From positions 96,001 through 160,000 of IMG/VR virus record IMGVR_UViG_3300036762_000065: a DNA stretch of 64,000 bases. One strand, given 5' to 3'. Position numbers and translations under genes: made by a program. Positions within the stretch are counted from its first letter, which is position 1, and every line of letters starts with the position of its first letter. This DNA comes from a virus. Taxonomy: Duplodnaviria; Caudoviricetes. Positions 32,717 to 58,778 of this stretch are shown in pieces. The notes beneath the pieces were generated by a model. The model was not told where the DNA came from, did not search any database, and saw only the letters and a program-made list of their open reading frames with translations.

Positions 32717-33439
32717 CTATTTTTTATTTGCTAAGGCAGCTTCTGCCCACACTCTGTCAGGCATTTTAGCAGAGACCATAGCATCTCCCGTCTGCTTAAC
32801 AAATATGTCTAATGCGTCTTCTTCAGACATATCTGAAGTTATTTCGTTTTCTACAGGAGCAGCAGAGGCGAATGCTGCAATTTTAGCTCCGTGTATTAAT
32901 GCAGTATGTTCCGCAAGCCCTAGTCCTATACCCTTTGCTGCACTAGCAAGACCTGCACTTAACCCACCACTAATTGCCATTGGTCCTATCACCATAGCTT
33001 CGTGTATAGCCGCAGTTTTTAGTGCATGTTTTTCGTGACTTGTCATTTTCTTGCCGGTAGCTAGTTTCTTAATTCCTCTACCTGCATCTTGCCATTCTTT
33101 TACTTCATGCTTAATAGCTTTAACGATACCTTTAGAATTATCTTTAATCATTGAGCCAAATGTACGTCGTTCTTTGGACTCCGGTTTATGGCCACCTCTA
33201 CCGAAGAATTCTTTTTGGTCTTCGCTAAACTTATTCCAGTGTTTCTTAATGTGGTGACTCACTTGCACTTTAGCAACCGTGTCTTTGCCTTTTTCGGACT
33301 TTTTAGCTTTGTATGCCACTGCATATTTAGAGGTAGGGTACTTCTTAACATAAGCTTCTTGCCCTGCTTGATCCATTTCGTAGAACCAAGCACCTTCTTT
33401 AGTAACGGTCTTTGATAAGGAAATCTGTATAGGTATCAT
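32717..33439 (-). CDS. Basic protein with MIPIQISLS leader and Gly/Ala hydrophobic segment (candidate internal virion protein)
   Basis: Leader motif; W....Q..Y.KKYP.SKY motif; GGLSAGLASAAKGIGLG segment. Confidence 0.7.
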   Translation of the reverse strand: MIPIQISLSKTVTKEGAWFYEMDQAGQEAYVKKYPTSKYAVAYKAKKSEKGKDTVAKVQVSHHIKKHWNKFSEDQKEFFGRGGHKPESKERRTFGSMIKDNSKGIVKAIKHEVKEWQDAGRGIKKLATGKKMTSHEKHALKTAAIHEAMVIGPMAISGGLSAGLASAAKGIGLGLAEHTALIHGAKIAAFASAAPVENEITSDMSEEDALDIFVKQTGDAMVSAKMPDRVWAEAALANKK

Positions 33440-33448
33440 TTGTAGTTC

Positions 33449-34990
33449 CTATTTATTTCCTGTGAATTGCACATAAGTAAAGCAGCTATATTTTCCATGC
33501 TTTTCTTCTGGACATTCGCCTTTAAAACTTATAGTCAGTGAGTTTTCAAAGAATAGGCCGGGAGCACCTGCTTCTATATCTATTATCGGACTGACAATAT
33601 TTAAAATCTTCTTCTCGCCAAGTGTCATCTTAACATAATTGTCTTCTGTATTAGACTTGTGTTCGTGTGGGAAGTATCCTCCTATAACAGCACGCCATTG
33701 TTCTGTAGCTAATGCTGGTATGGTTATTTCAGTAACGTTACCGTCTATGACTATTTTAGCACTACCTTCTGCCCCTGCTACCAGAGCAGGAAACATAATA
33801 AGAGGTATAAACCCACCGTGCTCATTACACACTCTAAACAGATCAGTGTATGTATCTGCGTTGATACCAACACCTCCGTGTACGCCTCCGTATCTACGTA
33901 GTACTGTCATAAATCCATATTCTTTTAGAGGGTCGTCTGCACTGTAGATAGGAAATTCTAGGCCGTCTGACTTGACTACAACTACGTCATCTATACTCAC
34001 TCTGCTCATTGGCATTTTTGTAGGAAAACGTTTGTAGTTGTTAGGGATTACATACGCAGATTCTTTGTCTAGTCCTACGTCCAGTCCTTTCCCTGTTTTC
34101 CCTGTTATGAAGTTTAAAAATTTCAATTTAGCCCTCAATATAGTATCGTGCCTAGGACTCAAAGGTAGTACATGAGTACCATCCAACACCTCTAAATATG
34201 TAGAATTCTCTATAGTACAAGAGGCGTACTCGGCATGTTCTAAATTAACATCTGTGTCCCTAGTACCGTGTATTATTAAAGCAGGTGAGGTTATGTTTAT
34301 TAAAGGATATCCGTTAGCTTTTAATTCACGTAAATCATTCTCTACGCCTTTTTTGCGTAACTTAGGGTCCATGAGACTATTTGTAATACGTTTAAACAGA
34401 CTTAAACGTACAGGGTCTCGACACACGTTATAACTTAAATCCCGTATTTCCCTACTACTCAAACTACTTGTGCATTTCAGCATCATATAGATTCCGAACC
34501 TAGGAAACAGGCGCACAGACAACTTACTCATTAAAAAGTATATGTCGGATAAGGCAGGCTTGTACGTAAGCTTTCTACTTATGAAGTCATAGGGAACTTC
34601 ATACCGTTTACTAACACCGCTTTCTATTATAAGTCCTATACACCGCTCTGGATAAAGGGCTGCAAAGTGATATGCTATACCTGAGCCTGAACTTATAGCG
34701 TATATGATTGCCTTAGGAATGTCTAATTCGTCCATTAAACATTTCATCATAATAGCTTGCTTTCTAAAAGAGGAATTTTCGTCTGACAAAGGGGTTTGTC
34801 CATAACCAGGTCGCGACCAAGCTACCACACTACAAGCACACTTGTGCATTATATCGTTTAAGTAGGGTTCAATTTGATCATAACCGCCAGGAGTTCCGTG
34901 AATAGCAACTATACGAGGGCCGGAAGCTCCGTATGTTTTGTACTCAACTTCACCCAAGGCTGTATTAATAACACTACTTTTAATGTTCAT
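33449..34990 (-). CDS. Alpha/beta hydrolase fused to an unknown C-terminal domain of about 200 aa
   Basis: HGTPGG oxyanion motif, SRPGYG.T, nucleophile AISSG, HGTRD acid, GTH His. Confidence 0.85.
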   Translation of the reverse strand: MNIKSSVINTALGEVEYKTYGASGPRIVAIHGTPGGYDQIEPYLNDIMHKCACSVVAWSRPGYGQTPLSDENSSFRKQAIMMKCLMDELDIPKAIIYAISSGSGIAYHFAALYPERCIGLIIESGVSKRYEVPYDFISRKLTYKPALSDIYFLMSKLSVRLFPRFGIYMMLKCTSSLSSREIRDLSYNVCRDPVRLSLFKRITNSLMDPKLRKKGVENDLRELKANGYPLINITSPALIIHGTRDTDVNLEHAEYASCTIENSTYLEVLDGTHVLPLSPRHDTILRAKLKFLNFITGKTGKGLDVGLDKESAYVIPNNYKRFPTKMPMSRVSIDDVVVVKSDGLEFPIYSADDPLKEYGFMTVLRRYGGVHGGVGINADTYTDLFRVCNEHGGFIPLIMFPALVAGAEGSAKIVIDGNVTEITIPALATEQWRAVIGGYFPHEHKSNTEDNYVKMTLGEKKILNIVSPIIDIEAGAPGLFFENSLTISFKGECPEEKHGKYSCFTYVQFTGNK

Positions 34991-50413: not shown

Positions 50414-50677
50414 TTATTTTGTACGTAACCCGTGTGCGGCTGGATTCTTTCTAACTACACTTCTACGTTTCGACACCTTTTCTTTTAGTGCATCACGTTT
50501 CTCTTCAATTTTAGTTTCAATGGCCTCAATACGAGCTTTAGCTTTATTTATTTTATCTTTATACCCGGTTCCTTTTTCTTTTTCCAAAGTTGCAATTAAA
50601 TCTTTTTGCTTTTTTATCTTTTGTTTGTCCGTAAGTTTTGCATTTTTTGTTGTGCTCAAGCTAATAAGAATTTTCAC
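50414..50677 (-). CDS. Small Lys-rich coiled-coil protein with MKILISLS leader
   Basis: GTG start with SD AGGAG; leader motif. Confidence 0.7.
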   Translation of the reverse strand: MKILISLSTTKNAKLTDKQKIKKQKDLIATLEKEKGTGYKDKINKAKARIEAIETKIEEKRDALKEKVSKRRSVVRKNPAAHGLRTK

Positions 50678-50919
50678 TATAAATCTCCTAGTATGTTTAG
50701 TATTTCCAATTCTTTTCTTTGTATTATTGCGTCAGGTGCTATTTCAGACAGTCCGCTCAACTCTATCACAAGCTTTGCTACCGTAGGGCCTATTTGTTCA
50801 GCATTGTGTTCAGCAAATACCGCAGCATCTTTATACGCTTTGTTGCCTATAAGATGCTTTAACTCTAACGAGAGAGAATGCTTTACGTCTGTGCTTAAAC
50901 TTATCTGTATAGGAATCAT
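50677..50919 (-). CDS. Small protein with MIPIQISLS leader
   Basis: SD AGGAG; leader identical to that of 32717-33439. Confidence 0.7.
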   Translation of the reverse strand: MIPIQISLSTDVKHSLSLELKHLIGNKAYKDAAVFAEHNAEQIGPTVAKLVIELSGLSEIAPDAIIQRKELEILNILGDL

Positions 50920-51647: not shown

Positions 51648-52352
51648 TTACTTAGCGTGTTTTAAATATGACTTTATTGCTTTAACGACAAAAACTCTAT
51701 CTTTGTCTTGTTCTGCACTAGATAGTTTGCTAAATGGTTTTTTCTGGTGCTCTTCTGCCCACGATCCGTTACGTTCGAGCCATTTTTTATGTACGTGATC
51801 GGCAGCTTTATCTAAAGCACCTGCATCGAGCTTACCTCCTTTAGCAGCTAATTGTATTCCTTCCACAACAGCTTCGGCATTCTTCTTGTTCTCTGCTTTC
51901 CAATCTTCAGGTAAGTCTTTATAATCTGTGTTCAGTATATCAACCTCGTCTTTACCGTTTTTCTTTATCCACGCTTCATCTTTAGTTTTCTTTATCCTGG
52001 TTTTCTCATTAGGCTTATCTCTTCTATATTCTTTTTGCCAATCTGAGTGTCCGTTAGATGCAACATCGTCAACCATTGCTTTACTGTGTTTTTTTATGTC
52101 TACCTTATCGCCCATTTTCTGAATCAACGCAGAACCTTGTTTTTGTACTAATGTACCTTTAACAGGAGCTTTCTTGGTAGCAGTTTTACTTTTAGTTACT
52201 GTAGTGCCTTTGACAGGCACGAGCTTGCCGCCTACCGATTTGTGGGTTATTATACCTTCTTTGTTTGCGTATCTGCCGAAAGAAGCATGGTGCAATCCCA
52301 TTTTCTTTGCTTCAGCACCAGCATCGCTAGATAGACTTATATGTATAAGCAT
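51648..52352 (-). CDS. RyR-repeat protein with MLIHISLS leader
   Basis: Two RyR-like units, H..W...Y.DLPE.WK.EN and H.VH..W...PF..LS..EQDKDR; N-terminal GL...FGRY...G..THKS..GKL domain. Confidence 0.65.
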   Translation of the reverse strand: MLIHISLSSDAGAEAKKMGLHHASFGRYANKEGIITHKSVGGKLVPVKGTTVTKSKTATKKAPVKGTLVQKQGSALIQKMGDKVDIKKHSKAMVDDVASNGHSDWQKEYRRDKPNEKTRIKKTKDEAWIKKNGKDEVDILNTDYKDLPEDWKAENKKNAEAVVEGIQLAAKGGKLDAGALDKAADHVHKKWLERNGSWAEEHQKKPFSKLSSAEQDKDRVFVVKAIKSYLKHAK

Positions 52353-52434
52353 AAAAAAGTTCCTTATTTAGTATTGTGTTTTTGATTACTATATTATGAT
52401 CATTACGGTACATACGTATGACTACTATGGTACA

Positions 52435-53152: not shown

Positions 53153-53404
53153 TTATTTCTCCATACAATCTTCAACAACTGTACGTAATTTTTCTTTGTA
53201 GCTCTTACCGGAAGAGCCTACAACGCGAATGCTACCATTCTCACTGATAGTGGCTATTTTAGTATTACCGGAAAAAACGATTGTTTTATTTGAAAATCCG
53301 CTACTATTATCTACAACGCCTTTTAAACCTATTGATTTTAATTTACGTTGCAGTGAAGATAGATCAACTTTTTTACTTTTTGCTATAGATATTTGTATTT
53401 TCAT
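53153..53404 (-). CDS. Small basic protein with MKIQISIA leader
   Basis: SD AGGA; leader motif. Confidence 0.7.
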
Positions 53405-58007: not shown

Positions 58008-58217
58008 TTAATTAGACATAGGGCTGGATACGCGACATTTAGTGCAGTACCACACTGTTTCTACATTTGCAGCAAGACCTGTCCCCATCTGCATACTACA
58101 TTTAGGGCAAGTCCCTTCTTTAGAGTTATCCATAGCTCCGCTTGTGGACTCTGTTCTGCCAGAAGCCTCAGCCAGAGGGTCAAATAACTCACGTCCGCTT
58201 TTTGTTAGTTTGCTCAT
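58008..58217 (-). CDS. Small zinc-ribbon protein
   Basis: CPKC...YCTKC; SD AGGAG. Confidence 0.7.
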   Translation of the reverse strand: MSKLTKSGRELFDPLAEASGRTESTSGAMDNSKEGTCPKCSMQMGTGLAANVETVWYCTKCRVSSPMSN

Positions 58218-58244: not shown

Positions 58245-58778
58245 TTAATCTTTGATAATATTTGAAGGCAATTTGCAATACATCTTTATAGAAATAGGTT
58301 TTTTCGAAAGTTCTAAATTCACGCTTTCTATAAGGCGTTTTGTAGCAACACTTAAAGTTCCTTCTACCGTGTCTAGTGTTATGTGCGGTGTAAAAGAATC
58401 GTAGGAGTGCTTGGCTCCAGCATCTATAATACGCTTGTGCATATCTTGTATGTTACCGTTTTCAAGACCTGCAACCACATACGTTCGCTTATCGTGACCA
58501 ATCCAGTGTTTTATACTAACGATATCACAGACAACAACTTCCATTGTACGGTATAGTTCTTCGGCACGTACAACATCAACAACTTCTTTAGGGCTATATA
58601 TTAATGTGCAGTGTAGCTTTGATGTGTTGACCTTTATACCAAGACTGTCGCACAATTTCACTATGTTGTTAATACTCGCATCATCTGGTGCAGAATGCAT
58701 ATACAGCCCGCTTTCTGCATTATACTTTTCGTGATACAGCTCTGGACCTTTAGCAATAGCAATTTGTATAGGTATCAT
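58245..58778 (-). CDS. acb1: Acb1-like (T4 gp57B family) 2H phosphoesterase, anti-CBASS, with MIPIQIAIA leader
   Basis: GLY, LHCTLIYS and GAKHSYDSFTPHITL match the two HxT motifs and spacing of T4 57B (IHSTICYS; GATHDFDDYTPHITL). Confidence 0.8.
   Translation of the reverse strand: MIPIQIAIAKGPELYHEKYNAESGLYMHSAPDDASINNIVKLCDSLGIKVNTSKLHCTLIYSPKEVVDVVRAEELYRTMEVVVCDIVSIKHWIGHDKRTYVVAGLENGNIQDMHKRIIDAGAKHSYDSFTPHITLDTVEGTLSVATKRLIESVNLELSKKPISIKMYCKLPSNIIKD

Follow-up and report, generated by a model that had tools for sequence, protein, structure and literature searches.

A window of 64,000 nucleotides, comprising bases 96001-160000 of a complete virus record of 241,706 bp, contains a gene whose product, P0001, carries a pair of ryanodine receptor (RyR) repeats, Repeat12 (R12), behind a short leader, a small domain and a basic linker (Table 1). 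From its sequence, P0001 probably works like two phage proteins, RyDEP and RyR Tad, but belongs to a separate, large clade that lies below the Pfam cut-off. What is new here is probably this distinct clade, in which the lid over the binding cleft has been swapped between the repeats, together with a candidate head-targeting tag; the general function class was already published in 2026.

Table 1. Features of the P0001 gene and other leader-bearing genes, in window coordinates.
Feature	Position	Strand	Remarks
P0001 gene (leader, small domain, linker, RyR Repeat12)	51648..52352	-	234 aa; ATG start
Shine-Dalgarno AGGA (52364-52361), with TAAATA before it	52361..52370	-	8 nt upstream of P0001; from sequence
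Leader, residues 1-8 (M-L-I-H-I-S-L-S)	52329..52352	-	short hydrophobic strand ending S-L-S; putative head-targeting tag and prohead-protease site
Small domain, residues 9-48	52209..52328	-	helix and four strands predicted
Basic linker, residues 49-83	52104..52208	-	length varies among relatives; low confidence at 53-60
RyR repeat 1, residues 84-170	51843..52103	-	H102-x-x-W105, long lid (R119, K121, D125, W128, D138, N141), then E154-N155
RyR repeat 2, residues 177-233	51654..51824	-	H188, W191, K217, D218, R194, N195; short loop without His-Pro hairpin
Acb1-family 2H phosphodiesterase with leader	58245..58778	-	PF23474, E 9e-18, above Pfam cut-off
83-aa protein with leader	53153..53404	-	no family
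80-aa protein with leader	50677..50919	-	no family
87-aa basic coiled-coil protein with leader	50414..50677	-	
240-aa protein with leader	32717..33439	-	no family

The source is a jumbo phage of the Lu11/PaBG kind, and its major capsid protein shares 66-67% identity with the counterparts in the Pseudomonas jumbo phages Lu11 and PaBG. The neighbors of the P0001 gene encode collagen-like (tail-)fiber proteins and belong to a long minus-strand structural operon. The TAAATA upstream of P0001 is possibly a T4-type late promoter box; this motif precedes 16 of 260 starts against 4.8 expected, a comparison in which AT-richness is uncontrolled. Neither a sigma-70 promoter nor a terminator was found on the coding strand. 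Within the 82-bp gap that precedes the gene are two perfect palindromes, of 10 bp (52411-52420) and 8 bp (52396-52403), which are possible operator sites. A small Cys-rich zinc-ribbon ORF lies directly downstream of P0001 (51436-51627) and another directly downstream of the Acb1 gene (58008-58217), the latter with PaBG gp242 as its orthologue. We regard P0001 as a real gene because the codons have changed at 72 of the 147 residues that are identical in P0003, a 62%-identical homologue at the equivalent position in another contig. A chance or artefactual ORF is ruled out by this divergence and by the existence of homologues. The gene is not in PaBG, and a tblastn search of 50,697 cultured phage records matched the small domain alone and gave no match to the R12 part, so that P0001 is an accessory gene. 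PHROGs held no family matching it.

The identification of residues 84-234 as a Repeat12 pair is shown in silico by confident models, by top structural matches that are exclusively RyR and by the mutual alignment of the two repeats (hhalign E 8.5e-5). AlphaFold returned a pLDDT of 90 for the full length and 95 for residues 84-234, and in a Foldseek-independent search of 48,161 chains the two best matches to the full-length model were RyR repeat pairs, with Z 6.9 and 6.4. When the core was submitted to the VIA structure search, the 21 best matches were all RyR repeat pairs (Z 9.5-6.3) and the first unrelated chain appeared at Z 6.0. The best of these were 6uhi (Z 9.5) and RyR3 R12 (Z 9.0, rmsd 3.2), with about 132 residues aligned at rmsd 3.2-3.5. 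The ESM Atlas gave a RyR cluster at TM 0.77 and nothing for the small domain. Foldseek by itself reached a best E of 0.08, which is non-significant, though RyR R12 held the first rank. In the model, tandem two-helix repeats form a pseudo-symmetric four-helix cleft. The repeat signature, HxxW in helix 1 and aromatic-x-x-L-x-x-x-E-x-x-K-D in helix 2, is complete in repeat 2, while repeat 1 has E-N in place of K-D. A complex prediction with two copies of residues 84-234 and ADP-ribose scored 0.01 and was counted neither way.

An original prediction, made from the nucleotide sequence, had proposed this architecture, and most of it was borne out. The leader is present and is common to about 13 otherwise unrelated ORFs of the genome; the small domain, with its motif GL...FGRY...THKS..GKL, was recovered with its predicted helix and four strands. 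The two RyR-like units are upheld by the repeat-repeat alignment, the 132-residue structural match and the match of the family profile to RyR12 structures. The suggested comparison with the Pfam RyR profile (PF02026) gave a divided answer. The family profile matches RyR12 structures (6uhi, E 1e-7; 3nrt, E 4e-4), but P0001 alone, at E 0.037 and 14.7 bits, is a weak match below the gathering cut-off of 27.4 bits, and the Pfam profile matches 12 of 21 homologues weakly, with a best E of 8e-6. The linker was said to be Lys-rich and does contain 23% Lys, a modest enrichment because the whole protein already has 18% Lys and a pI of 9.7.

Reports connecting phage RyR proteins with ADPR-type signals, which the same prediction had mentioned, do exist. 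RyDEP, described in a 2026 preprint, is mycobacteriophage DyoEdafos gp78; it hydrolyzes 2'/3'cADPR by means of H75 and D117, while W78 stacks against the adenine and the phosphates are gripped by H100 (PMC13232231). Among its phage R12 homologues H1-H8, 6 of the 8 tested bind cADPR isomers without cleavage, and only one enzyme is known (PMC13232231); these sponge-type homologues retain the His/Asp dyad yet do not cleave. RyR Tad, also the subject of a 2026 preprint, is Pectobacterium phage vB_PatP_CB1 gp68, a 43 nM sponge with residues H129, W132, K147, H154, K170 and D171, in which the double mutation H154A/K147A weakens binding about 100-fold (bioRxiv 10.64898/2026.06.04.730250). Both proteins were defined from viral PF02026 members, both form homodimers via helices 1 and 4, and neither has been described as a virion protein.

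When the repeat-2 family profile was compared with the ligand-binding repeats of these proteins, it matched RyR Tad with E 6e-6 and RyDEP with E 7e-5, and the H, W, K and D residues were in register: H188 corresponds to H75 of RyDEP and H129 of RyR Tad, W191 to W78 and W132, K217 to K116 and K170, and D218 to D117 and D171. In 164 sequences these residues are conserved at 100% (H188), 98% (W191), 96% (K217) and 98% (D218), as are H102 (99%), W105 (98%) and K121 (93%). The repeat-1 lid residues R119, K121, D125, W128, D138 and N141 are 88-99% conserved in the same set, and about 15 polar residues are at least 90% conserved over phage and cellular members. Through a deletion of 12 residues, repeat 2 has also lost the hairpin on which H100 of RyDEP, or K147 and H154 of RyR Tad, is located, leaving a Glu at the His position and a His-to-Asp spacing of 30 rather than 42.

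The likeness to the published proteins is therefore partial, and P0001 is not filed with either because it lacks one defining feature, the repeat-2 phosphate hairpin; as RyDEP proper it was rejected since the His-Pro hairpin is missing. Like RyDEP, P0001 is a phage-encoded four-helix Repeat12 with the four repeat-2 pocket residues, but its long lid is on repeat 1 rather than repeat 2, it has a second HxxW in repeat 1, and it scores 14.7 bits against PF02026 where RyDEP scores 33.3. The contexts also differ. The RyDEP glycosidase is NARP1-linked and its gene lies within an Adps/Namat operon, whereas P0001, with its leader and small domain, has fiber genes for neighbors in what appears to be a late structural operon. 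The complete genome has no PF04095 match (NAPRTase/Namat-type), and a role in NAD recycling as in RyDEP/NARP1 is unlikely for this reason; it also has no cytidylyltransferase gene and no Acb2/Tad1 gene. With RyR Tad, P0001 shares the layout of an N-terminal accessory domain and a C-terminal R12, although the N-terminal domains are unrelated, there is no BLAST-level pairwise similarity, and the RyR Tad gene lies in an anti-defense hotspot of the replication region instead of among virion genes. The closest structures, animal RyR3 Repeat12 and the B. thetaiotaomicron RyR protein (3NRT), resemble P0001 (Z 9.0-9.5) in having a Trp in both repeats and a basic repeat-1-loop residue; they differ in sequence (16-20% identity), in the truncated repeat-2 loop of P0001 and in that P0001 stands alone, with no channel. 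Animal RyR12 has two HxxW motifs and binds adenine nucleotides weakly. In RyR3 (PDB 6UHE/9L90) the nucleotide is held by Trp880 and basic residues, including the phosphate-binding Arg895 of the repeat-1 loop, 15 residues past Trp880; R119 and K121 sit 14 and 16 residues past W105. Since the repeat-1 Arg895 helps to hold the nucleotide, it is reasonable that repeat 1 might supply the lid in P0001. A pocket rebuilt in this way may allow the clade to recognize a different signal or to use a different chemistry.

The clade is large, with 349 clusters (50% identity) in a profile search at E<=1e-30 and 1032 at E<=1e-10, the membership of the weaker ones being unchecked; yet it falls under the PF02026 cut-off from which RyDEP and RyR Tad were defined. 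Cellular members are mostly from Patescibacteria, with Bdellovibrionota, lipoproteins of Sericytochromatia and Bacteroidota, and actinomycete proteins in addition. The actinomycete members carry the RyR domain C-terminally, behind YbaB-like and WXG100-sized genes, in ESX-like cassettes. In Streptosporangiaceae (L040:3864-5414, L036, L042, L053, L055, L063) this arrangement resembles a type VII secretion cargo cassette. Lipoprotein-type signal peptides in Bacteroidota and Sericytochromatia members (L048, L051, L062, L079, L084) imply an extracytoplasmic ligand. Among 129 neighboring proteins, judged by their 25 commonest families, no TIR or Thoeris family occurs twice, and a host-side TIR partner was rejected for this reason. 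The breadth of the clade argues for a conserved small-molecule site and at the same time makes it less certain that the ligand is a Thoeris signal in particular; indeed, given the lipoproteins, the ESX-like cargo and the lack of a recurrent TIR neighbor, the ligand may be another molecule.

Phage members are found in cargo-like settings. Portal-fused and polyvalent cargo proteins of phages have reportedly been described by Iyer et al. The actinophage copies are part of polyproteins that are fused to the portal or adjacent to the protease and that also contain ART, Nudix or 2H domains; fusions of the clade include Fic domains as well. In the tree, which is based on 148 columns and has unsettled bootstrap, we confine conclusions to two supported clades. 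Actinophage copies form a clade of their own (100/97) among Saccharibacteria, and among the members of a jumbo-phage clade (99/99) is one, P0112, on a long branch, that starts with a leader of the T4 type and comes from a contig in which such leaders recur. We infer from this that the RyR clade was recruited to cargo independently at least twice, in the actinophage portal-fused polyproteins and behind a T4-type leader.

In T4, internal proteins bear at the N terminus a capsid-targeting sequence that ends at Glu. The leader of P0001 is similar in that accessory proteins of unrelated kinds carry it as a short tag at the N terminus, with an end motif that also appears enriched in the presumed scaffold, but it ends in S/A-L/I/V-S/A, and its putative role in packaging is read from sequence. 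Across the whole 241.7-kb genome, 12 ORFs score at least 19 against a profile of the leader motif, one is borderline at 14.5 and the remainder score below 10. A strict pattern fits 9 of 1575 ATG starts, where internal positions would predict about 0.5, an excess that is overstated because the pattern was derived from its own matches. The bearers include, beyond those in Table 1, a PcfJ/LRR protein, and several are small and basic. The Acb1-like protein that had been predicted to share the leader is indeed an Acb1 with the same tag. In related contigs the leader stands on most small accessory genes, including Nudix and Acb1. Looser versions occur on two KMPT-N proteins (G000 33306-34664 and 187492-189132), one with SprT and one with SAP. 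As a Sec or lipoprotein signal the leader was rejected, since it has 8 residues and lacks a long hydrophobic core or lipobox. We found no paper on such a leader tag in Lu11/PaBG/RSL1-type phages.

The end of the leader fits a prohead-protease site. An acidic 797-aa protein encoded between the protease and capsid genes, presumably the scaffold of this phage, contains more S/A-L/I/V-S/A tetrapeptides than expected (17 versus 7.0, p 0.0005), as does its PaBG orthologue, gp82 (16 versus 6.3, p 0.0003), with no enrichment in tail sheaths. These two proteins (G000 87090-89483, L005:9091-11484, and L019:22918-24849) are called 'ATPase' in PHROGs/RefSeq, yet they are acidic, of low complexity and tetrapeptide-rich, and are probably prohead scaffolds. 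Maturation reportedly shortens the PaBG capsid protein by some 20%, in agreement with the 20.6% that cleavage behind E-A-V-A (residue 78) would take off; the PaBG virion protein gp83, one of 14 Coomassie bands, has a similar leader that ends in E-A-V-A. Further PaBG proteins with such a leader are gp219 and gp221. The PaBG Acb1 orthologue, gp228, has a leader-like start and is not among these 14 virion bands, which form a shallow list. The small domain occurs once in this genome. Of 44 viral proteins with this domain that were examined, 41 have a leader of the T4 type in front of it, and most are cytidylyltransferases of the cyanophage type. The cyanophage cytidylyltransferases have repeatedly been detected in virion proteomes, although the authors caution about carry-over.

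We favor the following mechanism. P0001 would be a late protein, brought into the prohead by its leader and clipped there after S-L-S by the phage protease; cleavage at this point together with head loading is likely. P0001 would be ejected into the next host and, in late infection, would be plentiful in the cytoplasm too. Its Repeat12 cleft would clamp a signal of the ADP-ribose type made from NAD, the likeliest being the Thoeris messenger 2'/3' cyclic ADPR, with W191 and W105 stacking on the adenine and H188, K217 and D218 holding the ribose end, as in RyDEP and RyR Tad. By two-fold symmetry and by analogy with Arg895 of RyR3, the repeat-1 lid (R119, K121) might substitute in phosphate binding for the lost hairpin. 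Sequestration would be likelier than hydrolysis, and P0001 and the equally tagged Acb1 would together make a counter-signaling kit. That P0001 binds a ligand of the adenine or ADP-ribose type is very probable; whether this ligand is a Thoeris cADPR isomer we judge to be evenly balanced, and the packaged anti-Thoeris-type sponge, with all its parts taken jointly, is put forward tentatively. The packaged anti-Thoeris or anti-signaling role of the original prediction stands to the extent that the RyR fold, the four pocket residues and a leader behaving like a head-maturation tag all speak for it, and is weakened by the deleted hairpin and the lack of a recurrent TIR neighbor, with packaging itself reached by inference.

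Several observations tell against this mechanism, namely the absence of the hairpin, the lack of BLAST-level similarity to RyR Tad, a genome that offers no NARP1 context, and the many cellular members that, being lipoproteins or ESX-like cargo, would not encounter a Thoeris signal in the cytoplasm. If the sponge were packaged, moreover, the few injected copies would saturate fast. Catalysis suits low-copy virion cargo, and the clade may instead be a delivered enzyme that hydrolyzes NAD+, an ADP-ribosyl linkage or another adenine nucleotide via H188/D218, as a general effector of phages, Patescibacteria and ESX-secreting actinomycetes. The polar residues conserved across phage and cellular members, the retained RyDEP dyad, the C-terminal placement in YbaB/WXG100-like cassettes and the fusions to ART, Nudix, 2H and Fic domains are all in keeping with such an enzyme, but sponge-type homologues have the dyad too and do not cleave, the counterpart of RyDEP H100 is missing, and no clear immunity gene follows the actinomycete copy in L040. 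We consider an enzyme of this kind rather unlikely.

Packaging may also be dispensable. Evidence points to the capsid as what sets off type I Thoeris, so that late expression from a structural operon would by itself be well timed for a cADPR-type sponge that acts in the cytoplasm only, the leader having another role such as proteolytic activation or turnover and no meaningful injection taking place. That RyDEP and RyR Tad are undescribed as virion proteins, and that the PaBG Acb1 orthologue is missing from the virion bands, is compatible with this explanation, to which we give little weight in view of the independent recruitment to portal-fused proteins and to a leader of the T4 type, and of the tetrapeptide enrichment in the presumed scaffold. 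We are equally doubtful that P0001 is an internal head protein whose cleft holds ATP/ADP or a non-immune ligand, or whose basic surface neutralizes packaged DNA. Its pI and Lys content, the small, basic character of several leader proteins and the two HxxW motifs that it shares with the weakly nucleotide-binding animal RyR12 would agree with such a function; against this, the gene is accessory, absent from PaBG and from all cultured phages searched, it is accompanied by Acb1 and other nucleotide-acting cargo, and its invariant pocket residues are common to non-basic, non-viral members.

If the sponge that we favor is packaged, these phages would be able to counter signaling immunity from injection onward. 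The leader also offers an easy sequence criterion by which candidates for injection can be picked out among the proteins of Lu11/PaBG-type jumbo phages. A broader proposal, which we regard as unlikely, is that the lid-swapped Repeat12 clade is a general delivered anti-signaling effector, preloaded into heads by jumbo, T4-like and actinobacterial phages with lineage-matched tags, delivered to other cells by Patescibacteria and ESX-secreting actinomycetes, and binding or cleaving an NAD-derived, possibly undescribed, signal. If true, nucleotide immune signals would for the first time have an antagonist that is injected from the virion, and S-L-S would stand as a new head-targeting tag in phages of the Lu11/PaBG type.

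Some further loci deserve mention. An actinophage protein of 1183 aa (L016:5110-8661), whose gene lies immediately upstream of one for an HK97-type prohead protease, combines a domain of the RyR clade with a 2H phosphoesterase and so mirrors the pair of RyR and Acb1 here. The actinophage copies (L010-L017, L066) are nested among Saccharibacteria (L073-L099), whose hosts are often Actinobacteria, which might reflect gene sharing, in either direction, between parasites of the same host. In a wastewater phage contig (L188:2107-8577), a series of leaders of the T4 type precedes a C39 peptidase, a RimK-like ligase, P0112 (a RyR and metallopeptidase protein) and another small-domain protein. In related jumbo phage contigs, an Acb2/Tad1-hairpin gene (L190:490-849) and an Acb1 gene (L191:1389-1931) each lie within 5-7 kb of a RyR-clade gene.
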